Shown here piece by piece: positions 2,258 to 57,833 of a stretch of 64,000 nucleotides of DNA. A program made the position numbers and the translations under genes. The notes under the pieces are model-generated. The model made no database searches. It was not told where the DNA came from and saw only the letters and a list, made by a program, of their open reading frames with translations. Position 1 is the stretch's first letter. Every line of letters begins with the position of its first letter. Source of the stretch: a virus (Duplodnaviria > Caudoviricetes). The stretch lies in the IMG/VR virus record IMGVR_UViG_3300018494_000083. One strand, given 5' to 3'.

Positions 2258-2572
2258 CTACATTATACAATCTCGAATCAAACGATTATACCATATTGGG
2301 TCTTCATCTTTGAGTGATTCAAAATCGTATACTTCTTCTTGAACGTTGACTCGACCAGTATGATCATAAAAGTTAACTTTATCAGAACTGACTACAAAGT
2401 GCCCAGTTATTGGCATGTAATAGATCTTCAGGTTTGGAAAACGGGCACAGAGAATAATAGCAAAGTAATAACAGTTTCCAGTAGTCCAATTACAGTCTCC
2501 TGGAAATCTTCTGTTTATAAACTCGGTTATTATTTCATCAGTAATCAGATTCCTCTTGGTTACATCTTTCAA
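2258..2572 (-). CDS. Hypothetical protein
   Basis: 104-aa ORF (GNCYYFA...GHF...YD), co-directional with neighbours. Confidence 0.65.
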   Translation of the reverse strand: MKDVTKRNLITDEIITEFINRRFPGDCNWTTGNCYYFAIILCARFPNLKIYYMPITGHFVVSSDKVNFYDHTGRVNVQEEVYDFESLKDEDPIWYNRLIRDCIM

Positions 2573-3299
2573 ATCTATATCCTTTCGTGTTTGGTTGTTG
2601 ACCCTTTAAGACTCTGTTTATGCATTTCATATCCACATTGTATTTCTTGGCTATTCTCGATAAGCCTTCCTCAATAGTAATCTTTCCATCTGGATGAATT
2701 ACCTTCAAGGTTACTTTCTTCTGTGGTGTGTAATGGTCTACGTACTTTTGTTGTTCCTTAGCACTCAACCATATACATGTGCTTGGAGAGTACACTTTAT
2801 TTGTATCCTCATTGAATTGCCTAGCGTCTTTATCTAGACTAATCTTATTTTCAAGCAACAATTGTCTATCCCAACCGACTAATTCCTGAGCATCATAGAA
2901 AAAAGATGAGAAACTGCGCCATCTCTCACAGACTCTTACATCCTTATCAAAGTAGGATTTATGACTTTTATGGTTCTCATTATAGCACCTGTAGATCATA
3001 AACTTCCATCTATCGTATAGAGCTTTACATAATATTGGGTCATCTCTCTTGAGTTCCTCGTATTTATCACCGAGGTAACCAAGCCCCAATACAGTAGGCT
3101 TTCTACGATCTTTGACTTCTCCAGTTCTCACTTGGTTGTAGGGAGCAACCGTTTTATAACCAGTCTTTGGGAAATAAATAGAGACATACAGCTCATTGTC
3201 TGTATGTCTTCGAAATGTTTTCAGTATCCATATAGGATCTTTTTCCTTGTTACGGAAAGTATAAGCTGATCGAGCTTTAATATTATAGAATTTACTCAT
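2538..3299 (-). CDS. Free-standing HNH-like (homing-type) endonuclease
   Basis: LYDRWKFMIYRCY...VRVCERWRSFSSF...LDKD...YSPSTCIW pattern typical of phage HNH-family endonucleases; probable C-terminal DNA-binding module. Confidence 0.7.
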   Translation of the reverse strand: MSKFYNIKARSAYTFRNKEKDPIWILKTFRRHTDNELYVSIYFPKTGYKTVAPYNQVRTGEVKDRRKPTVLGLGYLGDKYEELKRDDPILCKALYDRWKFMIYRCYNENHKSHKSYFDKDVRVCERWRSFSSFFYDAQELVGWDRQLLLENKISLDKDARQFNEDTNKVYSPSTCIWLSAKEQQKYVDHYTPQKKVTLKVIHPDGKITIEEGLSRIAKKYNVDMKCINRVLKGQQPNTKGYRFERCNQEESDY

Positions 3300-7964: not shown

Positions 7965-8332
7965 CATTATCTTCACACAGGTCGTTAATCTGTGCAGTTC
8001 TCTTATGAACTTCTCCAGCATTTCTCTGGATGTTGAGACTATATCATCATCTTCTTTCGAAGGGTTATCCATTTCGATTTAAGGGATTCTCACCCACCCA
8101 CTTGGGTCCTACTCCTATTGCCGATTCTCACGGCTTATTTCAGGATAGTCGTTGAACGTTCCTCTCTCGAGGCTTCGCTGCGGATTATTCAATCTTTAAC
8201 CTTTTTACTATTCCTCGGATAATTACTCCGAGCCATTATGTTTCACATAACTTAGTAGCCAAAGCTCTAAGAATATCCCCGCAATTAGAATAATTTTGTA
8301 ACTAGTCCATCACTAGACTAGGGGACATGCTA
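7965..8332 (-). ncRNA. Group I intron B in dnaB (368 nt)
   Basis: P1 pairing TGGGAT/GTCCC; terminal G; core near-identical to gyrB intron 2; carries ~80 extra nt. Confidence 0.85.
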
Positions 8333-8344
8333 ATCCCATGATTC
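8333..8344 (-). CDS. dnaB: dnaB micro-exon 2 (12 nt, ESWD)
   Basis: GAATCATGGGAT lies between the terminal G of intron A and the P1 of intron B; gives NVS-ESWD-VMKNTD. Confidence 0.8.
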
Positions 8345-8633
8345 CAAATATCTTCACTAAGGTCGTTAATCTTAGCAGTTCTTCTACGAACTTCTCTAGG
8401 TTACCCTAGAAGTTGAGACTATATCTTCATCCTTTATATAAAGGAGCTCACCATTTCCATTTAAGGGGATTTCACCCACTCACTTGAGCCGTACTCCTGT
8501 TGACCATTTCAGGTCCAATGGGATAGTCGTTGAACGTTACTCTTTCGAGTCTTCGCTGCTGATTAGGTCTGTAACCCTCCCAGCAATTAAATGAGGATCG
8601 ATATACGTTACCGTATAAAGGAGCAAATTCCTT
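8345..8633 (-). ncRNA. Group I intron A in dnaB (289 nt)
   Basis: P1 pairing GAGT/GCTC; terminal G; core near-identical to gyrB intron 1. Confidence 0.85.
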
Positions 8634-9986
8634 ACTCACGTTTTGTTTACCAAGTAACTTAGTTGTATTCTTTTTGTTATTAGCCACTGCTTCAGACATA
8701 ATCGAAGAAGCAGTTCTGTTTAACTGAGCCGCAGAGATGAACGGAATATGTCTAGCCTTTGCAAGCTCTGCCATTTCCGTTGCTACATTACCCAAGTTAA
8801 AACGCATTTCATTTGTTTGATGCTTGGGCTTAAGCTTCTCAATATAGTCCTGTACCACTGCAATGATCTGAATTCCCTTACGGTCAAAGTCAGAGATCAG
8901 TGCATCAATATCAGATACTCCAATTTCCTTATCTGAGAAATACCTGAAGATAAAGTCGATACTGTTCTTATCGCTTCTCTTATTGATAAGACCGGCAGAC
9001 TTAAGACCTTCGACAATTTGTTCGTTGGAGAAGTTTCTGATATCTTCGCCAGATACAGACATATTAAAGATTCTCTCAAATGTCTCTGATTTAGAGTTCT
9101 CTTGAGAGATGAATAGTACTGCTTGTTTCTTTCCATCCACTATGGGTAACTTGTTATACTTCGTTATCCACAATGCACAGGAAAGTAGAACGATTGATTT
9201 ACCTACACCAGTAACACCCATGAACAGATATGATCTACCTGATTCAAATCCACCGTTCAGCATCTTATTCAAGAACTGAATTCCGGTTCTGAGTTTGTTA
9301 TTCGGTGCATTCAGATCGTCCATAACCGAATCTATCTCACCTAAGATCGTATCGGTTGTTAAGTCGAAACCTTTACCGTCTCGACGATATTCTTCACTCT
9401 TACGAACTTCGGCATCGATCTTTGTCATTATCCGTTTAAGTTCGTTAGAGAAGTCAGAAATTCTGTTAAAATATCCTTGGTCCTTTCGCTCAAATAGGGA
9501 AGCCAGTTCCTTTGAGCAAGTAAGAGACCATCCATTGATCAGATTCTCGAATACCATAGTATTTAAATACTTACAGGTATCATTATCCATTCTCTGACCA
9601 ACTAAGGGCTTGACCACTTCCTGGTCAATTATGTCTTTCAATCGGCGGTCGCAATTTCGAAGAATATGTTGAACCACCAATGTTTTAGATGTTAAGTTTA
9701 GCTCACATCTAGCTTCCATAGCAAGCTTAATAAACTCAAGTCTTGCCTTTGCACTATCATTAGTTCTATATGGTTTAGGATCAAGCATTTCGAACATTGT
9801 CTTCATGTTAGCAAGAGCCGAATGTGTAACACTATCAGCTCTCATTGTAACTGAATAAAGACAAAATTGATCTAATTCATCTATTGATAGATTGAGAGGA
9901 AGCAGACAGTAATCTTTACTGTCTCGTGGATCGTAAACTAGTACATCCTCAATAATGTCTTCCGACGCATAATCAAGGTTGAACAT
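8634..9986 (-). CDS. dnaB: DnaB-like replicative helicase exon 1
   Basis: TGIQFLNKMLNGG, GVTGVGKS (Walker A), ISQEN, VVQDYI, SAAQLNR; spliced product ~648 aa. Confidence 0.9.
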
Positions 9987-11935: not shown

Positions 11936-12043
11936 AATAATCTCCTTTCTCTTAATATTTTGTCCTCGGCGTTCTAAAAGATTAGAAAACTTCTTATATT
12001 TAGATCTTTCAAATTTATAGTGTATAACCTAGTAGAGTTTTGA

Positions 12044-14179
12044 ACTCCGGCAATGATTAATGTTGAGAATGAGAATAGATGGTGGTGGACGCATGAGAAA
12101 GGTTATGGCGGAGATTGGTCATATAGTCCACGAGATAAAGATCATGGTTGGATACTCCAACCCAAATCTATAAAGGAACAACAGCCGGAGCATCTAGAGT
12201 ATTCTCTTTAAATCTTGCTGGTTGGGCATATGATTGGTATGTAGATCCGAGAGATATCAATGGTAAGTCCAAGATTACATGTCTATGATGACAATACTAG
12301 AGGTACAATAATAATTTTGAGTGGGTATAGTCAAGATTGGGGATATCCACAATCCTTATCGTATATACTCCATATATCAATCTAGATGGACAGACAATAA
12401 ATGCTAAAATGAATTCATTAATAATATCCCAATGGGGCACTTTGATTATTTATTGGGCTTCTGGTGAGTTTATCCAAGATGGTGTCCTACTCCTAAATCA
12501 ATAATGTGGGGACAAACAGAAAATCATATTTACCATAATCATATAGTTACTCAATATGGCGATATGAATCATGATTTCTGGGTAATTCTTGAACGTGGTG
12601 TAAATTACTCCTAATGCACATCTTACTGCATTGACCCATCAAAATACTATCAATGTCATTCGAGATCCAGGTGAAATTAATTACTATACATATCCTTATA
12701 ATTCGAATCATACGTATGATTACTCCGTTTAATGATCCATATAAATTATCGACTATATTCTTTATAATTACCACAGATTCAATATCTTCATATGGTACAG
12801 GTAAACAGTATTCATATGATACAAATGGTCGATACTCCAATTAAGTCGTTCAAAAACACTGATGATTCGGCTCGCAGATATCATACAATAATGGATACTA
12901 ACGGTCAAGCTCTATTAGACGGTTGGTATGCTATATATGGATTTAGAGGTGTGCTACTCCAGTATTAATAGGATTTCCAGGAAATAGTGACCAATATGCA
13001 TCTCTTGGCTGGCGAATGGCTCAAATACCAGATTGGGGACATGGGCATTCATCATATGATACTGGTTATTCGTATGGATCTTGACTCCATTATTTAATAA
13101 TTCTAGTATTCAAACATGGCATTGCAATGCATTTAAAGCTATTTATAAAGGAAGTGATGGCACATATGACCAGAATTGGATAATTGGTGTCTATACTCCA
13201 CATTTTCTGTACCATATTCCAAACTTTACAATGTTCACAGATATAGATGGACAATCAAGACCAAATTATTCTATGTACGGTCAATTTCCTCAGAGTAATG
13301 GTTCAACTCCTAGTATATCTATAACAACTGAAAAGTCTCCTCGAAGTAGTTACATTAACTCTTCCGGAAGTATCGGACTTGCAGCATATGCACAATTTGG
13401 ATATGGTTCACTCCACATTTTTTATATATCTATGCTGAATATGCCATGCTTATTAGTCCATCTGGCACGAGCGATGTCAACTGGAATAGTACATTAGGTA
13501 GCCGTCCACACGAGATAGGTGATTTACTCCAGGTACTATGAAACCAACAGATAACCATCCACGCCATACATATATAATGAATAATGGTAGAGGTGGAGAT
13601 GGCGCATATGTTCAGTTCTCGTATGATCTACTCCAAGTCTTGACCAATTTGATATGAATAATAACTGGTATGCACCATGCATAATTAATACTGGACAAGG
13701 CTCATTTGGTCATACTGGTACATCTGGTAAAGATGGAGACTCCAGATGATAGATTTATCAATGCAAATAAATTTACGAATATAGATGTTATTACACCAGT
13801 TGGATATGTATCAAATGGTTATGGATTAGTATATCAAAAACATGGTATCAGATACTCCTAGTTATGAGTACGATGCATGGTATAAACACATATCTGCAAT
13901 AAATCAATCAGGTTCTGGAATTGCGGATAGTTTTGAATGGATCTGGGGTGTTTATATACTCCAGATGTATTAGATACAATATATACATATTATTTTCACC
14001 TAATATATAATGCAGGACTAAGTACAGGTGGAGGTTATTTATTTCCAGGCGGATTAGGAGGTGTATCTACTCCATGGTCGCAATATTATTCTCAAACTTC
14101 CGAATACCACATGGGTTTATTTAAGCTGATAACTGAAACGGAATACACATCACAGTTACTAGCATACTTATCGTATGGT
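12044..14179 (+). repeat. Variable-region cassette array 1 (19 units, ~100-125 bp each)
   Basis: Units begin ACTCC (one AGTCC) and mostly end at GGT/GGA; every unit is stop-free in the TP frame; unit 2 (12154-12264) matches the target VR at 110/111 nt. Confidence 0.9.
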
Positions 14180-14223: not shown

Positions 14224-15189
14224 GTGAGGTATATTATTATGAAAGTACTGAGTAATACTTCTGTATATAACTATGCCGAACTTCTTGGTGGAGCCAAACT
14301 CAGTGCTGCTATTAAATCGCTTATCGATGATAAACATGGAGCAGTATATGTAACCGAATCTCAGTTAGAAGATGTATTCTATAAGATTCGCCACAAGAGT
14401 TTCAACTTCAAAGCTAAGTTCGGTGTAATCGATTTATTCCGTAAAGGAGTAATTCGTCTTGTTTATAACGAGAAGGTTAAACTCACCGTTGCAGTTCCTT
14501 TCTTTGCATATAAGATGCAGAATGGTAAACTCGGTGTAGTTGTCAACATTTCCAACTATGCACATCTTGAGAAAGATGGCTCTATTAAGATCGATCCTCT
14601 GGTTCTTTATTCTCTCATGGTTGCAGGTGCTTATAGTCTCCAAGCAGAGACTCAGCAGGCTATTCTTGCTACCAATGGACTTCCTGAGTTCTATGCTGAT
14701 CTGTTCGTATCTGTGGTTGCTCGTATGAGTAATCTCGATATGATTCGTCGCGAAAAGATCAAGTTCATCATGACTAAGTTCATGTGCATGAATCTCGGAA
14801 TGGACGAACCCAGAGCATCCAGTGCAGCTAAGAAGGTCATCAAGAATCTCGATGACTATAGCGTTGAGCAGCTTGATCTTGCAATTCCGGTTGCAGCATA
14901 TGTAGATCTTGATAATCTCATCAACGCTCTTCGTGAAGCACTTCCTGAAATCTCGGGTATCACTTATGGTATGATCTTCGACCGTTGGATTAAATCCTAT
15001 GGTGAAGCTACTGGATTTGCACTCGAATATATTCCTTTCTTCATCCTGACATTTGTCGCTCTTATTACTAACTGTAATAGTCTTGCTAACGTTAAGACTA
15101 TTGAGCGTGAAGCAAATAAGGATGCAAGAAGACTTGTAACTCTGTACGACCGTATTGAGACCGCTGTACAGGTTTCCGCAAACATTTAA
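14224..15189 (+). CDS. Hypothetical protein (probably late/virion)
   Basis: Long ORF; probable start MKVL after GAGG; GACA-N6-TA motif at 14198-14209. Confidence 0.75.
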   Translation: MRYIIMKVLSNTSVYNYAELLGGAKLSAAIKSLIDDKHGAVYVTESQLEDVFYKIRHKSFNFKAKFGVIDLFRKGVIRLVYNEKVKLTVAVPFFAYKMQNGKLGVVVNISNYAHLEKDGSIKIDPLVLYSLMVAGAYSLQAETQQAILATNGLPEFYADLFVSVVARMSNLDMIRREKIKFIMTKFMCMNLGMDEPRASSAAKKVIKNLDDYSVEQLDLAIPVAAYVDLDNLINALREALPEISGITYGMIFDRWIKSYGEATGFALEYIPFFILTFVALITNCNSLANVKTIEREANKDARRLVTLYDRIETAVQVSANI

Positions 15190-15277
15190 CAAAAAAAAAT
15201 AAAATTCGGGAGAGGCTTCAACCTCTCCCGATATGTTTATATATTTTTAGCCAACAAGCAACATATAAATAATGATG

Positions 15278-15460
15278 TTAAAATATTGGAGTCAAATTTT
15301 TCATAGGATATCCTTTCCCGTGTGCAGTAATGATTGGTTGCAGCAACGGTTTCTTCTTATGAATAATAGGATTTTTCGCTACCGCTTCGTTATGGCAGTC
15401 ACAAACCACTTTCAGTAGTTGTGGATGCTTGCAACAAAGGCGAATAAAATTATCGCTCAT
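15278..15460 (-). CDS. 60-aa hypothetical protein, copy 1
   Basis: GAAAGGAG SD; paralog of 15689-15871. Confidence 0.75.
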   Translation of the reverse strand: MSDNFIRLCCKHPQLLKVVCDCHNEAVAKNPIIHKKKPLLQPIITAHGKGYPMKNLTPIF

Positions 15461-15688
15461 ATTGAGATCTCCTTTCGATATATTTCGAATTTGACATCAT
15501 AACCTAGGTTGACGGATAAGAGGGCTGACTCTTATCCGTCTTTTCCTTGATTATTATATCATATTCATAAATATGGTGTATAATTAAGTCTTATTTTAAA
15601 CTAAAAAAAATAAAATTCGGGAGAGGTTGAAGCCTCTCCCGATATGTTTATATATTTTTAGTCAACAAGCAACATATAAATAATGATG

Positions 15689-15871
15689 TTAGATTATTGG
15701 TGTTATATTCTTCATAGGATATCCATTTCCACTCGTTGTGATTTTCGGCATCAACAGTGGTTTATTCTTATGAATAACCGGATTTTTCAATACACCTTCA
15801 TTGTGGCAATCACAAACAACTTTCAACAGTTGCGGATACTCACGGCAAAGGCGAATGAGGTTATCACTCAT
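15689..15871 (-). CDS. 60-aa hypothetical protein, copy 2
   Basis: GAAAGGAG SD; conserved frame, length and Cys/His residues. Confidence 0.75.
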   Translation of the reverse strand: MSDNLIRLCREYPQLLKVVCDCHNEGVLKNPVIHKNKPLLMPKITTSGNGYPMKNITPII

Positions 15872-16074
15872 GCTAAGTATCTCCTTTCAATGAATTTGAA
15901 TTTGACATCATAACCTAGGTTGGCGGATAAGAGTTGCAGCTCTTATCCGTCTTTTTCCTTGATTATTATATCATATTCATAAATATGGTGTATAATTAAG
16001 TCTTATTTCAACTCAAAAAAAATAAAAATATGGAGATAGGCATTTCTGCCTATCTCCTTTATTTGTCGTTATTT

Positions 16075-20644: not shown

Positions 20645-21394
20645 TTACCATCCTTCCTTGAAACTTAAGAGAGCAGTCTTGAATGTATCAGACTGATATT
20701 CTTCGGGAATAGGCATACCATAGACTACCTTCTTTGCAGTCTCGATATCTACACTCTTAATATAAGACTTAAGAGAGTTGAAATAAGACAGATGATAGTT
20801 TCTATAGTTATTTGCGGTCAGTATGATATCCTGAATATCTTTCTTCGACCAGAGTTTCTCAAGCTCACCAGCACAGTGATATGCGAATTCCTCTTTATTT
20901 GTAAAGATGGCTAATTCAACACTGAGTGCGAGAAGGTTGATCTGATCAGTCTCGGTAAGATCAACATGATGGGATTTACCGTCAGAGAGTACAATATTAA
21001 TACCGCTTATGATTCTCTTATTACAAGCATCGCTCATATTAGCAATAACGCTATTACGAACATAGTCAAGAGTAGAGGTGTCTTCAATGGTGGCAACGTT
21101 ATAGATATCGTGGTTCTCATTAACCACGGATTTAAGAGTTTCATACTCACTCATCGAGATTTTAACGAGTCTCATGGGTTCAGTCGGATAAGAATGCTCT
21201 GTATCAAACTCGAGATCTCCAGTTACATAGATCTTATCATCATGTAACTCACCAGCAAGACCGACCGTAAGTCGGTAATTGGTATTAGGTCCAGATTTCT
21301 CTTTTCTTAGTCTTCTACCAGCTTTCTTATATACAACTAATCCATCGGAGACATCCAAGATCTTACCAGATGTACTTACAAATTTATAATACAT
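20645..21394 (-). CDS. DUF4376-like tail-fibre-associated protein
   Basis: DLTETDQINL...YHCAGE...YHLSYFNSLKSYI pattern, recalled from Firmicutes phage DGR neighbourhoods. Confidence 0.6.
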   Translation of the reverse strand: MYYKFVSTSGKILDVSDGLVVYKKAGRRLRKEKSGPNTNYRLTVGLAGELHDDKIYVTGDLEFDTEHSYPTEPMRLVKISMSEYETLKSVVNENHDIYNVATIEDTSTLDYVRNSVIANMSDACNKRIISGINIVLSDGKSHHVDLTETDQINLLALSVELAIFTNKEEFAYHCAGELEKLWSKKDIQDIILTANNYRNYHLSYFNSLKSYIKSVDIETAKKVVYGMPIPEEYQSDTFKTALLSFKEGW

Positions 21395-22487
21395 TTATCT
21401 TGCCTCCAAATAATGATTTTATATAGTTAACAAATTCAACTTCGTTCTGACGAGAGCCGAATGATTCTATTGTATCCATAGTAGACTTACAATATTCACG
21501 AACCTTATTTAGCTCTATTTCACCAGACTTCCATTTATTGTAAAGCTTCTTGAGTTTCTTCTTGTTAGATTGCATCTTTTTCTTAGGGATAGATGATATG
21601 ATCTTCCCTGATTTCTTAACTCGGAATTCTATCTTAAGATATTTAAATTCTTCGATAGTACTTATCTTAACTTTGTTTTCATTCAAAGTAAGTCCAAGCT
21701 CGGCACCTAATTCACTTACACTCTCAAGAACCTTCATAAGTTCTTCTCGTGTTCGCATGATAAGATAAGCATCATCTACATAGCGTCCAAAGAACTTTAC
21801 ATGACATTTCTCTTTGATGAAATGGTCAATTACATTTGGGTATACTACACCAACTAATTGACTGAAAGGTGCACCAAAAGGCATCTGTTCATATTGGCAA
21901 AACTCAGCAAGCTGTTTCTTTATTAGATTGTTTTTGGTATTTTTAGATACCACATTTAAAGCCTTATCGGGGATAATACTGTTAAAATATGACGAATAAT
22001 CTATAACCGCAATACAACAGCTCGTACCCCACTTATTAAATGCTTTAACTAGATCTTCTTTGATATTGACGTAGGCTTGTGTCATTCCTTTATTCTTGAC
22101 ATTGCCTACATTACCGTCTACTATTGATCCCAATACTACATCACTGAGATAATAGTCGTTGATAGTTTTCTGCACTAATCGTTCTTCGAGATGAGGTGTC
22201 TGAATATGTCTCTTCTTTCCTCGGTCTGTGATATCTACATCATATACACCTTTTGATTTGTAGATCTCTCCATGCTCAGCATTGTCCGCCATTTCATATA
22301 TGGCATACAGAGATTTTTCTTCAAACCTTGCATATGAGCCTTTCGATTTACGAGAACCTTTAGACATGCGATCATAAGTCTCAAATAGATTAGTAAATGA
22401 GAGTATATCAGATAACTCTGGTTCATCCTTGTGCTTCTTCCGTTGACGATTTTGATAACGGATTTCGCGTCTTTCTTTTGAGTTCAT
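21384..22487 (-). CDS. DGR-type reverse transcriptase
   Basis: RGKKRHI, ERLVQK, IDYSSYFNSI, MPFGAPFSQ (SQ motif of DGR RTs), GRYVDD; 367 aa with no maturase or endonuclease domain; downstream of an avd-like gene. Confidence 0.9.
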   Translation of the reverse strand: MNSKERREIRYQNRQRKKHKDEPELSDILSFTNLFETYDRMSKGSRKSKGSYARFEEKSLYAIYEMADNAEHGEIYKSKGVYDVDITDRGKKRHIQTPHLEERLVQKTINDYYLSDVVLGSIVDGNVGNVKNKGMTQAYVNIKEDLVKAFNKWGTSCCIAVIDYSSYFNSIIPDKALNVVSKNTKNNLIKKQLAEFCQYEQMPFGAPFSQLVGVVYPNVIDHFIKEKCHVKFFGRYVDDAYLIMRTREELMKVLESVSELGAELGLTLNENKVKISTIEEFKYLKIEFRVKKSGKIISSIPKKKMQSNKKKLKKLYNKWKSGEIELNKVREYCKSTMDTIESFGSRQNEVEFVNYIKSLFGGKINVL

Positions 22488-22489
22488 CT

Positions 22490-22910
22490 ATCCTCCATGA
22501 TAAAAAAGTTTCGTAAGAATCCTATTGAGACTCTTACGAAATTGGCTTCTGTATAATCAGTTGTAGATAGCATAGATTACATAGGGAATTGGTATGAAAC
22601 TACAGAGCTATCAATTCTGTAGCCATGCAAGAAGCGTCCACCTATCCCATCAGAATCATATAATGATTTCCTCCTTCAACAGAAGATACTGAATTCACCT
22701 TGTGGGTTACTATGCCTGACCAGCTGCTGAGAGACCATGAAGCTAGTTATGTATTTTTAAGTTGAATCCCGAAGCAAACACCATACGATGTATATGTCTT
22801 CCATATCTTAGTTCGGGCTTCACACCCGCATCAGCTGCCTTAGTAAGATATGTATTGAGAGAGGTTCTCAACGACGTTCGATATAGGAAATCATGTATAT
22901 AATCACTTCC
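22490..22910 (-). ncRNA. DGR RNA region (degenerate TR with IMH*-like end plus spacer)
   Basis: ORF-free interval between avd and RT; 17 nt ATGGTGTTTGCTTCGGG (22768-22784) identical to the target VR 3' flank (27091-27107); hairpin at 22510-22540. Confidence 0.7.
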
Positions 22911-22912
22911 AT

Positions 22913-23407
22913 TTAGTAATATGCAGAGAAGTCTTTACCAAATGCAATAGAGAATCTCTTAAACGCTCTTTGGTCTTGTTTCATTACACCACGAATTAAC
23001 CTTGCCTCATCCAATATTCGTCCTGTAAACTCTTTGAGAACTTTATCTTTGTCTTCGATAAGTTCCTGAATTTCCATTCGCTTACCAATCTTAAGGAGCT
23101 TTCCAACTACCTTAAGAGAGGATATTGTGGCTTCAAAGAATTCTTGGCGTCGTTCATATGCTTTTCGGTACATCTCATATGTGGCATCAGTCTTTCCATA
23201 CTTCCAGAATTTAAAATCTATCTTTATATCATTTGCTTTCTCTAAATATTCCTGAGCCAGAGTGATATTGTACAATATGCGGTTTGTAAATGTTCCCGAG
23301 TATCGTTTAGGAAATTTTGAGCAGTGATTATATGTATAAGCTACTAGATCAGCCATATTATCAATGAATTTAATTTGGGATGAACCAACATCTCCGTAAT
23401 TATCCAT
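22913..23407 (-). CDS. avd: Avd-like accessory protein (four-helix bundle)
   Basis: 164 aa, FPKRY...EKANDI...ERRQEF...LIRGVMKQD pattern; canonical position upstream of TR-RT. Confidence 0.8.
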   Translation of the reverse strand: MDNYGDVGSSQIKFIDNMADLVAYTYNHCSKFPKRYSGTFTNRILYNITLAQEYLEKANDIKIDFKFWKYGKTDATYEMYRKAYERRQEFFEATISSLKVVGKLLKIGKRMEIQELIEDKDKVLKEFTGRILDEARLIRGVMKQDQRAFKRFSIAFGKDFSAYY

Positions 23408-23493: not shown

Positions 23494-23604
23494 ACCATGA
23501 TCTTCATTACCAGACCACGTTCCACCGGTAGGATTTCCATCAATATATATTCGCTTCCACCTATCGGCAATCATTACATCAGATACTATTTCATATGTAG
23601 GAGT
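23494..23604 (-). repeat. Solo variable-region cassette
   Basis: 111 nt ACTCCT...CATGGT encoding TPTYEIVSDVMIADRWKRIYIDGNPTGGTWSGNEDHG, directly after a terminator U-tract. Confidence 0.8.
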
Positions 23605-26532: not shown

Positions 26533-27336
26533 TTAAGCAAACCTATCCAAATAACGACAAGAATGAAGTTTAGTCAGTTCCTCGTTTGTAAGAACTTTAT
26601 TGTAGAACTCATAGCCTTCAATTACCGTATTGCTATTACCAAATACAGCTCTTCTATTATCGGAGCTATAGGCTCTTGCATTAGCAGTAATATTAGCCAG
26701 AGTATTTGTAGATTTAAGTTTACCGTTTACATATCCACGAATAGTAGCCGAACCAGTCTTATCTTGAGAGATAATGAGAGTGATTCGGTCTCCATCGTTG
26801 ATATTAGCGGGTGCAATGACCACTTGACCTCCGACGAAAATGCCTTGGGAACCATTCGAGATGTTGTAACCGCCGGTCAAACCGTTGCCGGAGTCCAGTG
26901 AATACCGCATATCAAAAATACCGCCGACATCAACCGCACCATCCAAGTCCTTAATTCTAAAGTCATAGATATGCGTAATTCCAACCTTGGGACTGCAAGC
27001 CATTGCAGGGAATACTTCGACTTCGCCTCGAGATTTCAGCGCGAGCGCCGCGTTGTAGTATCTTGCATGGTTTCTTTGCTTGGTTGAAAGCCCGAAGCAA
27101 ACACCATTGATATCTCTCGGATCTACATACCAATCATATGCCCAACCAGCAAGATTTAAAGAGAATACTCTAGATGCTCCGGCTGATGTTCCTTTATAGA
27201 TTTGGGTTGGAGTGCGAAGCCACCAGTATGTATAGTTAGGTGAGTCGTTGATGAGGAACTTCTTACGGATGAGAACAAAAAAGCGGGTAGTGAGTTTCCC
27301 CACTACCCTAAACAATCCCTTGTCACCAAGGGTCAA
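26533..27336 (-). CDS. DGR target: DUF6273/CLec-like variable segment fused to a LamG/ConA-like domain; start uncertain
   Basis: YWWLRTP...NGVCFG motif; C-terminal YVNG...YNKVLTNEEL is LamG-like; no ATG upstream of the VR, and the first ~20 codons overlap a terminator-like hairpin. Confidence 0.75.
   Translation of the reverse strand: MTLGDKGLFRVVGKLTTRFFVLIRKKFLINDSPNYTYWWLRTPTQIYKGTSAGASRVFSLNLAGWAYDWYVDPRDINGVCFGLSTKQRNHARYYNAALALKSRGEVEVFPAMACSPKVGITHIYDFRIKDLDGAVDVGGIFDMRYSLDSGNGLTGGYNISNGSQGIFVGGQVVIAPANINDGDRITLIISQDKTGSATIRGYVNGKLKSTNTLANITANARAYSSDNRRAVFGNSNTVIEGYEFYNKVLTNEELTKLHSCRYLDRFA
27103..27213 (-). other. Variable region (VR) currently matching array-1 cassette 2
   Basis: Reverse complement equals 12154-12264 except A12181 vs T (position 27186). 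Confidence 0.92.
27277..27308 (-). terminator. Terminator-like hairpin just upstream of the target VR
   Basis: GGGTAGTG-N8-CACTACCC followed by GCTTTTTT. Confidence 0.7.
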
Positions 27337-27623
27337 CAGTTAAACAACACTTATGTCCACAGAGCAATGAAAAGCAGGTTCATTTTTTGAAGGTACCCGT
27401 TTATGGCAGCAACGAGAATTTTACGGTTTGCGAAATTTATATATACAGGAGGTTTGTCAATGACAAGAAAGTTTACCATGTGTTGCTTAACTAGGAATAA
27501 GAATTATATAGTTTAATGTTAGCTTATTTTTATTTTTAATTAATATACAATTATACATTATTATTATGGAATTAGGAAACTAGTTCCAAATCGAAAATAT
27601 ATTATGAAAGGAAGTGACTTAGA

Positions 27624-28685
27624 TTGGCAAAAGTAGCTGAACTTAAAGCTTCTAGTTTGGAGCTTTTCAAAACACATATACTTACATCACAACCTTTGGC
27701 TCGTTTAAGTCCTTCTGGACGAGAGCTACAAATGAGATGTCCGTTCTGTGGAGATAGCGATTCCAACAGAACGAAATTGAGTTTCTCGATAAACGTAGAT
27801 CTTAACTCAGATAACTTTCTCAGATATCAATGTTTCAGAGCATCTTGTTTACAGAGAGGTGTTATCAATAGAGACTTCTTCGAAATGATTGAGTTTAACC
27901 AAGACCATGCAGTATCAGATATTACTGAATATATGGCTGCTAGAATGGTTAAGATTGGTGGTAAATATGTAGCCAAGAAAAGAAAGAGTCTCGTTAATGT
28001 AATAAATACATTAAGTCCAGTTTCTGATAAGAAGCTTGAATATATAAACAACCGTCTTGGTCTTAATTTGACTTACCAAGATATTTATAAGCTCAAGATC
28101 AATCTAGACTTCTGTGAATTGCTCACAACTAATGGTCTAGAGATTCCATATGATAAACAACGATATTATGGAATGCTTAGTGATTATGGAATCAGTTTCA
28201 TATCAGCATATAATGACTTTGTTATCATTCGTGATATTTCAAAGTCTCAACTTATTGGTAAAAGATATACCAATATGAATATATTCCAAAACTACGATAA
28301 TGTAACGAAGTGTTATAGTATTCCAAGAAGCATAGATCTACTTGATCCTGAACCTTGTATCATCAATATTAGCGAGGGAGCATTCGATATCATTGGTGTA
28401 TATTATCACCTTAAGATAGATCGAAAGTATAAGAACCAAGTATTCTTGGCGGCTTGTGGCGGCGGAATTGTAAATACAATAAAAGCATTTATCAAACAGT
28501 ATGGACTAATCAATGTGAAGATTAACATCTTCTCAGATGCAGATGTCCCTATTGAGAAATATAATGAAGTCTATAAACTTAAGAAGTATGTAAAAGACTT
28601 CAAAGTCCATGTGTACTATAATACACTGGAAAAAGATTTTGGTGTCCCTAAGGATAAAATAAAAATAATTAAGTCCACATTATGA
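27624..28685 (+). CDS. DNA primase (Zn finger plus TOPRIM)
   Basis: CPFCGD...CFRASC, ISEGAFD, FSDAD, KDFG. Confidence 0.85.
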   Translation: MAKVAELKASSLELFKTHILTSQPLARLSPSGRELQMRCPFCGDSDSNRTKLSFSINVDLNSDNFLRYQCFRASCLQRGVINRDFFEMIEFNQDHAVSDITEYMAARMVKIGGKYVAKKRKSLVNVINTLSPVSDKKLEYINNRLGLNLTYQDIYKLKINLDFCELLTTNGLEIPYDKQRYYGMLSDYGISFISAYNDFVIIRDISKSQLIGKRYTNMNIFQNYDNVTKCYSIPRSIDLLDPEPCIINISEGAFDIIGVYYHLKIDRKYKNQVFLAACGGGIVNTIKAFIKQYGLINVKINIFSDADVPIEKYNEVYKLKKYVKDFKVHVYYNTLEKDFGVPKDKIKIIKSTL

Positions 28686-38410: not shown

Positions 38411-40984
38411 ACTCCAATATCATACGGATTATGGATTCAAGATAAAGGAAGTTTCGTACTTGGAACACCTGTTAGTGGAACTGCGACATATGCATATAGT
38501 TCTAATCTAGATGGTGCTACTCCAGGAATGTATAATGAGGCAGAATGGAGACAGTATTACAGATTAAATATAGACGGAATTGGAGGAGCTGGCGGTTATA
38601 CATACGGGGTTGACGGATTAGGGTATGGTTTTACTCCAGGTACACATGACGGGGTTGACGGATTATATAATGAGATGATTCGACTCGGTTATAGCGGCGA
38701 TATAAATTTTGCAGGAGCTCAAGATAGCATACGAGGTGTATAGACTCCAGCAAGAAATCATCATTCAGTACCAGTTGATTTGAAATCTATGATAAATGTA
38801 TCGATATTTGGAGATGCAAGAAGTAATTATATTGAGGCTAGCTATAATCATGGTGCTACTCCATCAATATTCATAAATTCTGATAGTCATACAAGATATA
38901 CAATTTATAACAGAGATGGACTTGGAAGAGATTATGCATATGTTATCGATAACTATGGTACTACTCCATCTGATACAAACCCAAATTATGATGGGACATT
39001 GGAAGATTTTCATTGGATAGCCAATTATGGAGGACCTTATACAGGTTGGTTACCTACTTGGATAATAGGTGTCACTCCTTTAATGCATGCCGATTCAATA
39101 CATTTAGATCAAAGATCCTTTGCCATTACATATCAAGATGGTTGTTTTCAGGTTGATCAAATCGAAAGTTATTATACCCATGGTTATTACTCCAGATAAA
39201 TTGCTTCATGTAGGCGAATTAGCAGGATGCCATTATTATTGGTTTGGTACTGGCGGATATGGAGGTTATGGCGGAACAGTTTGGGACAAAAGAGGTGTCT
39301 CAACTCCAGTCATGAATTATCACTCAATAAAAATAGATCAATACTCAATTGCCAATATATTACCTAATGGAAATGCACATGCATCTCTAATAGAAACATA
39401 TTATAATCATGGTGTCACTCCACCAGCATTTGGTTGGATGTACCAAGGGAGTCCATCTGGATACGGTCATATTGCAATCATATTTAGTTGGGGAGAATCA
39501 TCTGCTAGCAACCAAAGTACAGCTAATCCAAATGGTGCTACTCCAGGTCATGCTCTCAGGTACAATGGTATGTATCCTGCAGAAGGATCTCTTAGCCTTT
39601 CTGATGGCAGGGGAGCTGATTCTGGAACTATTTATCAGGCGTATAATGGTACTCCTTCTGTTAACGACCCAACGATGTTAATATATGGCGGATATAAATA
39701 TTCCTATTACTTTTATGATATGAGAGAATATGGAGGTATATCTGCTGATTCATCTGTTGGAGATCGAGGTGTTTATGACTCCATTTTGGAATACAAATTA
39801 TGATATAGCTTATCCAACATGGGTTTATAAAATAGAAAGTACTGGTTGGTGTATAAGTTATAGAAATACTACCCTGGATAAACTTGGTGATATACTCCGT
39901 CAGTAGCCGATAAATATAATGGATCTATATTGATACAGGAGAGTGTTCGGATTAATGGAGATTGTTCATGGAATGTATCAAGGGAAAAGTATGGACTCCT
40001 GGGTTGCTGGGAGACGTATATCATTGGTGCGATCAGTTTGAATACACCCAACCAGATGGGATTGTATATAGTAGTGGATTTGGATGTCATTCTAATCATG
40101 GTTACATTACTCCAGTTAGTGTGAATAAAATATATTCTAGCGACATTAATAACACTTGTGTAATTTTAAGAAATGGTGAAAGCGGGACATATGGCTATTT
40201 CTATTCAGGTGCCAATAATGGTGCTACTCCTAGTAATATGACAGATAGCAATGCTCAATTGTGGGATAATGGAATATCTGCAATCGGAACTTGGATTAAT
40301 ACTTTGTGGAATAAAATTGGTGTACAACTCCACATTTAATAGTACGAAATTTTATCCAGGAAATGTACTGTACGAGTTTAATCATAGCTGACGGATACGG
40401 TGTAACAGATCAGTGGTTCATGTCAAATTATAAGCTTGGTGAATACCACTCCAAGATCAGAATCACTAATATATGAAGGAACTGAATTATCAACGGATCA
40501 TTTGTATGCCATACATGATATCGGTCAATGCTCTCCCAGATTTTATATTAATATGTATGGTTCTACTCCAGATGTAAGATATTGGGTTGGTTTAAATGTA
40601 TGGCATGAAGGTATCTTTTGTCATATTCATACTGAATATAATGAATATGTAAATTACGCAAATTGTAAGTATGAGTTACTCCAAGTAGACGAGTTCCACC
40701 AGATGGAGAACAGAGAGGAACTAGAGTTCAAACCGATGGGACGTGTTCCGAACTTATATATACTATTCTTCGGTATGGACAACTCCAAGTAGATCTAAAG
40801 TAGCCATCAATGATGATCGATGGTGCAGATATTGGGAAAATGGGACAGTCACCTTTCAAGCATATCCAACAATCAGGTATGGTCTACTCCAAGTAATTCA
40901 AAAGCTGCAGATAGTCTGAGATGGTGTAGATTTATGAATAACGGAACAATTACAGTCTTAGCTTATCCATCAATATCGTATGAA
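38411..40984 (+). repeat. Variable-region cassette array 2 (23 units)
   Basis: Periodic ACTCC...GGT units, each open in the TP frame (e.g. TPISYGLW...NLDG, TPGMYNEA...GYG); linkers shift the frame or contain stops. Confidence 0.9.
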
Positions 40985-41217
40985 ATACTTACTTGAAACA
41001 AAATAAGACATAAATATACATCATATTTGTGATATGAGCAGGAGTAATTACAAGACTTATTATATTAATATAGGGAGTTAATATAATAACAGATCATTAG
41101 TAATCACTGTGGGTATATAAAAAGATATACTCTGATTAACACATCAATAATGTACCGTGAAATGCGGCGCATGTTAATTATCATATCAAAAAAATAATTC
41201 AAAGAGAGGTACACAAA

Positions 41218-56403: not shown

Positions 56404-57833
56404 ACTCCATGTATAGGAACTGATCGTCCATTGCCAATATATAATCATCTTGTCAGAAATGTAGGTGCATCATTTAGTACTGGAGCAGATTATGTTTATT
56501 CTGCGTATGACTCCAACAAATGTAAATGATAATAGAGAAATGTACGGAACAAGTTTAATGCTCTTTTCAGGTGAGGGATTTATTAAAATGCATTCAACTG
56601 TGCGAGCATCCCTTGGTGACTACTCCACATAAAGTGCTACATTATGATAGAGAGAATTATGGCAATTCATTAGTTCTATATGATGGACGATCATACGCCG
56701 ATTCATATTATTCTGTAACTTATCAGATTGGTGGATATACTCCATTAAAAGATATAGGATATAATAATTACGAAAAACTCAACGGAATAAACCCAAGTGG
56801 ACAACCAGAGATGAAATACATGTGGATTCCAAATACCGAAAATGACGTCGGTGAGTAACTCCAACCCTTTGGTCTATTTATGATTATAATTATGATATAT
56901 TATACAGAATGGCAGATTATGGAGATTTAATTCTTGGTTCTGCTAGTCAATTATTTGGTGCCCATACTCCAGATACATGCTTTGAAATATTATCAATTGA
57001 ATCAACCAAATGGAAAGTAATTCATAATACTGGTGTAACTGTTGGCGGTCACGGAATTAGAGTCACTGACATTCCGGCTGGTGCAGGTGTTTGACTCCAG
57101 CAATGAATGAATTAAAAGCAGTGATTAATTATTCTGCATTTTTCTGGTTTTGGGATAGTATGTTATATTATGGATATATGCCAAATCATAACATTCCTGT
57201 TTGCACTCCTCTATCAAATCGATCTATATCAGATCTTGAGGGAGATCAGATACGATTTGCTGCATTATACAAAGATGCTGATGTATATTGACATTCCGTA
57301 AATTCTTGGATTTATGGTACTCCATATTCTCCTGGAGAATCTGCAACTTATTATATTGATAACAGCGGAAATAGTTCACCAAGAACAGGCAATATATTAG
57401 AAACTAGAGGTGTGACTCCGCAAGGAAAGATAGATCCATCAGCAAAAGCAGTAAATATCAATATTGCATATAATGGTCTTCCATCTTTACAGAACCCATC
57501 AGTGTCAGTTTGTGAATTACTCCAGTTAGAGAAAATGAATATGGACCACTTTATCACTTTGTCCTTGAAGCTACAGGTATTTCTAGAGGTGCGGGATGGT
57601 GTAGTACTCTTACTCTGACTGGTGTTAATTATTCACTCCTGAGGGTAGATCTTTATCTCACATAATATCGAATAAGGGAGAAGATAATCCTAGGTATACA
57701 AATATAGATACCAAATGGGGTGTTTGTTATTACTCCACAAGCGAAAATTCAAAGTGGAATAAAAACGGTATATCTCTTTATATCTGATTTTGGATTTTAT
57801 AGTATAGGTAATCCGAGCACACAAAAGTATGTT
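56404..57833 (+). repeat. Variable-region cassette array 3 (13 units)
   Basis: ACTCC-initiated units; 12 are open and one has an in-frame TGA (57289-57291); unit 12 ends GGTGTTTG like the target flank. Confidence 0.88.

Follow-up and report, generated by a model that had tools for sequence, protein, structure and literature searches.

The window analyzed here, a 64,000-nt stretch of DNA from a gut jumbo phage, holds arrays of silent cassettes, and whole cassettes were found to be copied faithfully and in one direction, from array to VR, at two recipient sites, with the donor kept and the boundaries exact. The relatives of this phage are 257–263 kb, the run labels include goat gut, and identity between its RNA polymerase subunit and the proteins of Listeria, Staphylococcus and Bacillus jumbo phages was 31–33%. 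The cassettes of the window are:

12154..12264, + strand: donor cassette 2 of array 1, 37 codons, Thr-Pro...Gly, with orthologues at 70–76% in L006, L064 and L230
12044..14180 (end approximate), + strand: array 1, 19 silent cassettes, one unit of which starts AGTCC at 12266
38411..40990 (end approximate), + strand: array 2, 23 cassettes, one family of which is installed in target protein P0204
56404..57835 (end approximate), + strand: array 3, 13 cassettes, one family of which is installed in target protein P0201
23494..23604, − strand: solo cassette following a terminator, found in only some of the strains

Apart from the one at 12266, the units begin with ACTCC. Over 30 codons, 54 of the 55 array units were free of stops in frame 0 (the ACTCC frame), with the other two frames giving 8 and 1, and a mid-unit hairpin motif, [IVL]xxxG, was identified in 54 of 70 cassette families where shuffles gave an expectation of 20. 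Based on the open frame and this motif, the units appear to be selected, interchangeable versions of a single protein segment. Pairwise identity among the 70 families was below 68%, and between strains the array units had been gained, lost, duplicated and recombined. No promoter signal was found for array 1; a motif near 12018 was rejected as its promoter, as it more likely serves the divergent gene.

The comparison of cassette 2 (12154–12264, + strand) with the reverse complement of 27103–27213 gave 110 identical nucleotides of 111, as in the original prediction, with identity running exactly from ACTCC through GGT. The sole mismatch is A12181, one of 35 adenines in the cassette, which is T in the VR and changes Thr to Ser. 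Logan contigs from four runs contained both alleles, each at about one copy, confirming that the match was real. The array-side contig carried A and no other letters at this position, an 83-nt contig (27156–27238) carried the T allele and, with the depth of a single copy, continued into the target 5' flank; in three of the listed runs the shared 83 nt formed a separate contig at approximately double depth. Three of these four runs possibly represent the source samples. Since the A and T alleles sit in separate contexts at single-copy depth, the match is not an assembly collapse.

The recipient of cassette 2 lies in a composite region of the window:

27103..27213, − strand: VR copy of cassette 2 at the headless recipient locus D, identified by its match to cassette 2 and by Logan contigs
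27214..27269, − strand: 5' flank common to D and the full-length target, 56 nt, ending in codons for WWLR
27068..27102, − strand: 35-nt, IMH-like 3' flank common to D and the target, the crossover or assembly-swap interval of the window
27277..27308, − strand: terminator-like hairpin and T-tract, directly behind which D is inserted; the site is empty in L044
26533..27067, − strand: 3' part of the real LRR_5+DUF6273 target gene (1873–1886 aa), identified by comparison with other strains and by Pfam

Strains with the same RT (95–100%) have, upstream of the RT gene, a gene for an LRR_5 + DUF6273 protein of 1873–1886 aa, which is a probable host-binding gene. DUF6273, a known DGR target, resembles a C-type lectin (PMC10743442; bioRxiv 2024.10.15.618418); the assignment of a C-lectin fold to the region rests on Pfam and PMC10743442, an AlphaFold model having been discarded (pLDDT 39). 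A gene for a 3690-aa LRR_5 protein precedes the target in all strains (L005:1-231 and upstream). The original prediction had taken 27103–27213 as the target VR and the match as evidence of transfer between array and target; the transfer is upheld, but the recipient is most likely a headless second copy, D, and not the intact expressed gene.

D, a decayed piece of the target, lies upstream of the gene at 27624–28685 with a terminator on either side. It is absent from L044 and occurs in this strain, L048 and L052, each time with a different VR. The window joins the 5' side of D and the VR to the 3' side of the real target gene. In the same assembly the expressed copy lies approximately 107 kb upstream with a different VR, and a reciprocal, 1720-aa truncated product was recorded from the same contig. 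The hybrid arose either from a genuine inversion, of approximately 134 kb, or from a swap during assembly. The VR at 27103–27213 most likely belongs to D, with one assembly having the same VR in the full-length gene (P0206). D and the target form inverted repeats whose flanks near the VR (27068–27269) share strain-specific SNPs, while the distal part of D is decayed. All four combinations of D or target VR and flank occur among the assemblies, so a second means of switching may lie in inversion or in exchange of VRs. An origin of the cassette 2 match in repeat collapse or misjoining would fit with the hybrid being the minority arrangement (4 contigs, versus 19 with the intact gene beside the RT). 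Such an artefact is highly improbable, given that unitigs showed both alleles at single-copy depth, that the same VR was found in D with native flanks in L041–L043 as well as in P0206, and that independent cassette and VR pairs were identified in other strains.

Terminator T-tracts directly precede the solo cassette (23494–23604), the pseudo-target D (27269–27308) and the starts of arrays 2 and 3; the solo cassette and D, lying behind terminators, are possibly the products of mis-homing or library-founding events. A conserved non-coding leader of about 200 nt (27310–27520, − strand) ends in a terminator and is near-identical in all strains, including those without D. It had no Rfam match and is a possible small RNA.

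Analyses of related gut jumbo phages of approximately 260 kb identified 18 distinct VRs of 93–129 nt, which occupy the ACTCC-to-GGT segment of the LRR+DUF6273 gene between conserved flanks. Eight of these belong to cassette families, with sources in arrays 1, 2 and 3, a proportion about as expected because roughly half of the library is visible. In all five cases that could be traced the whole cassette had been replaced, with the donor and recipient sharing 5 nt at one end and 0–8 nt at the other. In addition to the pair in the window, same-strain pairs were found for the D VR of L048 and an array on the same contig (107/108, the difference being T to A) and for the expressed VR of L064 and its own contig (111/111). 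The expressed VR of L010 was identical over 51/51 nt to a cassette on its own contig and over 96/96 nt to one in a strain with the same RT allele. Two VRs equalled cassette alleles of other strains (L048 vs L001; L058 vs L230, the latter over 94 nt). Apparent private changes in the L058 VR were discounted once the identical cassette allele had been found in L230.

The original prediction left the direction of transfer undecided. Cassette 2 has syntenic, diverged orthologues in L006, L064 and L230, and the matched cassettes in general have syntenic orthologues at 70–96% in other strains. Because the cassettes thus predate the VR copies, and because the VR matches the allele of its own strain, the transfer was from array to VR. 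At the mismatched site two of the three outgroup cassettes have A, and an A-to-T change in the VR copy is, from these alignments, probably the more parsimonious history; a change in the array copy was considered, as L006 has T, and dropped, as L064 and L230 have A.

Together, the four same-strain pairs differed at 2 of 426 nt, bearing out the earlier suggestion of low-error copying. The changes fell at 1 of 135 adenines (upper 95% bound 3.5%) and 1 of 291 other bases; with one event at A and one at T there is therefore no bias, and the A-to-T mismatch, at first seen as fitting RT infidelity, loses that value. The lone mismatch is uninformative on mechanism. Both changes lie in D copies, which presumably drift. 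In canonical relatives of the RT a median of 49% of adenines were changed, with canonical TR/VR pairs present in 102 of 123 related-RT loci, and the value for BPP-1 is 52% (PMC7826257). An A-bias in mismatches had been set out as the test of an RT route. The bias is indeed absent, but the rule that its absence refutes that route was too strong, as there is independent evidence for an RT route without mutagenesis.

It could be argued that the arrays are an archive in which VRs made elsewhere are deposited, so that a match marks a recent deposit or a back-conversion hiding earlier mutagenesis. The solo cassette and locus D, as present/absent insertions behind terminators, indicate that deposition happens, and the ragged, target-like 3' tails of the cassettes are in keeping with it. 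We consider an archive improbable as the explanation of the matches, given the older syntenic orthologues of the matched cassettes, the two VRs equal to cassette alleles of other strains, and the lack of an evident source of new VRs. Furthermore, no adenine signature was found between orthologous cassettes, which change equally at A and T (A-C 120, G-T 107; genes 65, 59), and this argues against hidden back-conversion of mutated VRs. Deposition may explain the origin of the library and not the match of cassette 2 to its VR.

For the expressed VR of this strain no near-identical donor was found among the cassettes compared (0/17 and 4/13 shared words), the assembly of the window lacking about 7.5 kb relative to the 257-kb contig; this VR may have arisen by mutation or as a mosaic.

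An RT module lies at a distance of about 4.6 kb from the VR, and its components are:

21384..22487, − strand: DGR-type reverse transcriptase, 367 aa, with R93 = bRT R74, F204 = bRT I181 and YVDD intact
22913..23407, − strand: Avd-like four-helix protein, 164 aa, predicted-structure TM 0.66/0.81 to the Avd-like cluster
22764..22789, − strand: retained template-repeat 3' end and IMH*, with 7 template-only bases, 15 nt shared with the target, then ATTC; matched by cassette tails
22524..22724, − strand: Rfam RT-2 RNA (RF03077) in the spacer, 90.8 bits, E 1.7e-19
22488..22912, − strand: whole avd-RT spacer RNA, with a predicted 19-bp upstream:spacer duplex, a predicted 7-bp template-end:spacer duplex and the template body as a predicted, stable multibranch element

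The RT is under purifying selection, based on 38 synonymous versus 11 non-synonymous codon changes. At the position equivalent to I181 it has Phe, where 214 of 235 homologues have Leu or Ile; in bRT, I181 contacts the incoming dNTP and promotes misincorporation (PMC7826257; bioRxiv 2023.10.23.563531). The Avd-like protein had no Pfam or relevant NCBIfam match and was assigned from its structure match and its usual position. The spacer duplexes were predicted at p 0.86–0.99, and we liken the two of them to the priming and stop elements of the BPP-1 spacer RNA (bioRxiv 2023.10.23.563531). Retained in the spacer are the orthologous template 3' end and the IMH* signature of canonical relatives; the template body has homology to no VR, the stretch shared between TR and VR being only 15 nt. 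In L001, L006 and L009 the spacer was >99% identical, a near-identity common to avd that may reflect a recent sweep. A 64-aa zinc-ribbon gene directly follows the RT in one strain group (L006:11094-11288).

The strongest link between this module and the cassettes is provided by the cassette tails. In 67 of 70 families the tail matched the template junction over at least 4 contiguous nucleotides in frame (4–8 nt), with a trade-off between the target-shared side and the template-only side. By a fixed-rule tail test, families without a terminal GGT had the template-only GTAT in frame in 11 of 14 cases, compared with 12 of 347 internal windows (p=1.5e-12). Protein selection is a poor explanation of GTAT, since the G before TAT is a third-position, largely synonymous base. 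These GGT-less cassettes share 1–2 nt with the target and 4–7 nt with the template RNA, and their use in the absence of template sequence is hard to envisage. No VR recovered could be linked to a GGT-less cassette from the same strain, and the tail match could be a relic of cassette origin. In the cassette at 57094 a non-Gly codon is accompanied by an extended constant-like tail, and in the VR at L009:5365-5493 Arg, not Gly, precedes the constant Val-Cys; the 3' junction can therefore lie beyond the Gly codon.

The same observations bear on DNA-level gene conversion of the vls/msp2 type, in which phage recombination proteins would use ACTCC and the GGT tail as microhomologies, leaving the RT module as a relic or as only a past builder of the library. 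High fidelity without A-bias is what such conversion would give, and the homogenization of D and target flanks within strains, with all four combinations in assemblies, makes DNA recombination plausible. Difficult to accommodate are the very short sequences shared at the two ends of a cassette, the GGT-less cassettes sharing less with the target than with the template RNA, and the intactness of RT, Avd and spacer RNA despite the loss of the canonical template. We consider gene conversion a possible but unlikely source of the VR copies.

We instead favor, with reasonable though incomplete confidence, a DGR-derived, high-fidelity cassette-switching system that would work by an RT route, a reading based on sequence comparison. 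In this proposal, cDNA synthesis by the RT and Avd would begin in cis on the spacer RNA, at the 3' end that the template has kept, in a BPP-1-like manner; it would cover only a short stretch and stall ahead of the folded template remnant. The cDNA 3' end would then anneal through 4–8 nt to a cassette tail, in array RNA or an array DNA strand, and be extended along the cassette up to ACTCC. Replacement of the VR by the chimeric cDNA would rely on the constant sequence at the 3' end and on the 5-nt anchor at the 5' end. Fidelity could come from an altered dNTP pocket (the I181-equivalent Phe) or from copying of DNA, and selection on occasional use would keep cassettes open and VR-shaped. The requirement of BPP-1 bRT for a template in cis is a point against copying of cassettes in trans, and no report of template switching was found in the literature examined. 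We also lean slightly toward viewing the system as a retroelement without hypermutation, in which an RNA would act as universal primer and adaptor, and short cDNA would jump by 4–8-nt homology onto remote cassettes for faithful, site-specific installation.

In Borrelia vlsE/vls, Anaplasma msp2 and Neisseria pilE/pilS, silent cassettes are copied one way into an expression site and the donor is unchanged; homology between cassettes and expression site is high there, and conversion is segmental. The phage system likewise copies one way from silent, retained cassettes, but whole unrelated cassettes are exchanged between 5-nt and 3–8-nt anchors, in a phage and beside an RT, and the 70 families lack the extensive homology with segmental tracts of vls-type conversion. 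Shufflons and integron cassette arrays also store a repertoire, which a site-specific recombinase inverts or excises. Receptor or function switching from a stored repertoire is common to these and the phage system, in which, by contrast, the donor stays and no recombinase site longer than 5 nt was seen.

With DGRs (BPP-1, and the DGRs of Firmicutes phages with DUF6273/tentaclin targets; PMC10743442), the system has in common a DGR-clade RT with GxxxSQ, an Avd-like gene (by structure match), a spacer RNA with predicted duplexes, a template 3' end with the IMH*/IMH difference (TTCGG(G)ATTC vs TTCGG(G)CTT, as in L158–L209), a DUF6273 target, and copy-and-replace of the VR. It differs from DGRs in a template body without homology to the VR over its length, the absence of adenine-specific mutagenesis, Phe at the I181 site, and a donor set of dozens of cassettes that are remote, non-homologous and variable in length. 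As two defining features of DGRs and one of vls-type conversion are absent, we place the system in neither class, its outcome being like vls and its chemistry probably like a DGR. No description of such a system was found in the literature searched, which mostly did not extend to subscription papers.

The system has been seen so far in one phage species cluster. Scans of viral_contigs and JGI yielded neither the target nor close relatives of the RT, and no runs of ≥7 anchors were detected in related-RT loci (160), pattern-matched viral loci (27) or genome loci (37), with ≤10 kb covered on each side. A sister RT (P0216, 38% identical; L057:1-1230, a 1.2-kb contig) has the same Phe, a similar upstream hairpin and a similar start of the downstream gene; judging by these features, its lineage is likely a second phage lineage carrying the cassette system.

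If our reading is correct, the phage would switch receptors by cassette and not by hypermutation, diversifying them from a pre-selected library of binding tips of varying lengths, beyond the reach of point mutation of a single template; this mode was not found in the literature searched. The system makes several DGR questions testable, including the cause of adenine mutagenesis (through the natural Phe at I181), the minimum homology for cDNA integration (5 nt at the 5' end) and RT use of templates in trans. The cassettes themselves would be a natural library of lectin-fold binders and, if copying is RT-driven, the system would be a candidate tool for faithful, targeted insertion of payloads of about 110 nt, a natural programmable cassette writer.

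Elsewhere in the window, four group I introns (Rfam RF00028) lie in two pairs at 301–892 and 8015–8643 (− strand), by the topoisomerase II and DnaB-like helicase genes, and an HNH gene lies at 2538–3299. Positions 15185–16036 hold two to three tandem units of about 411 bp with a promoter-like motif and hairpins; each unit has a 60-aa ORF in relatives, and L064 has one unit fewer.
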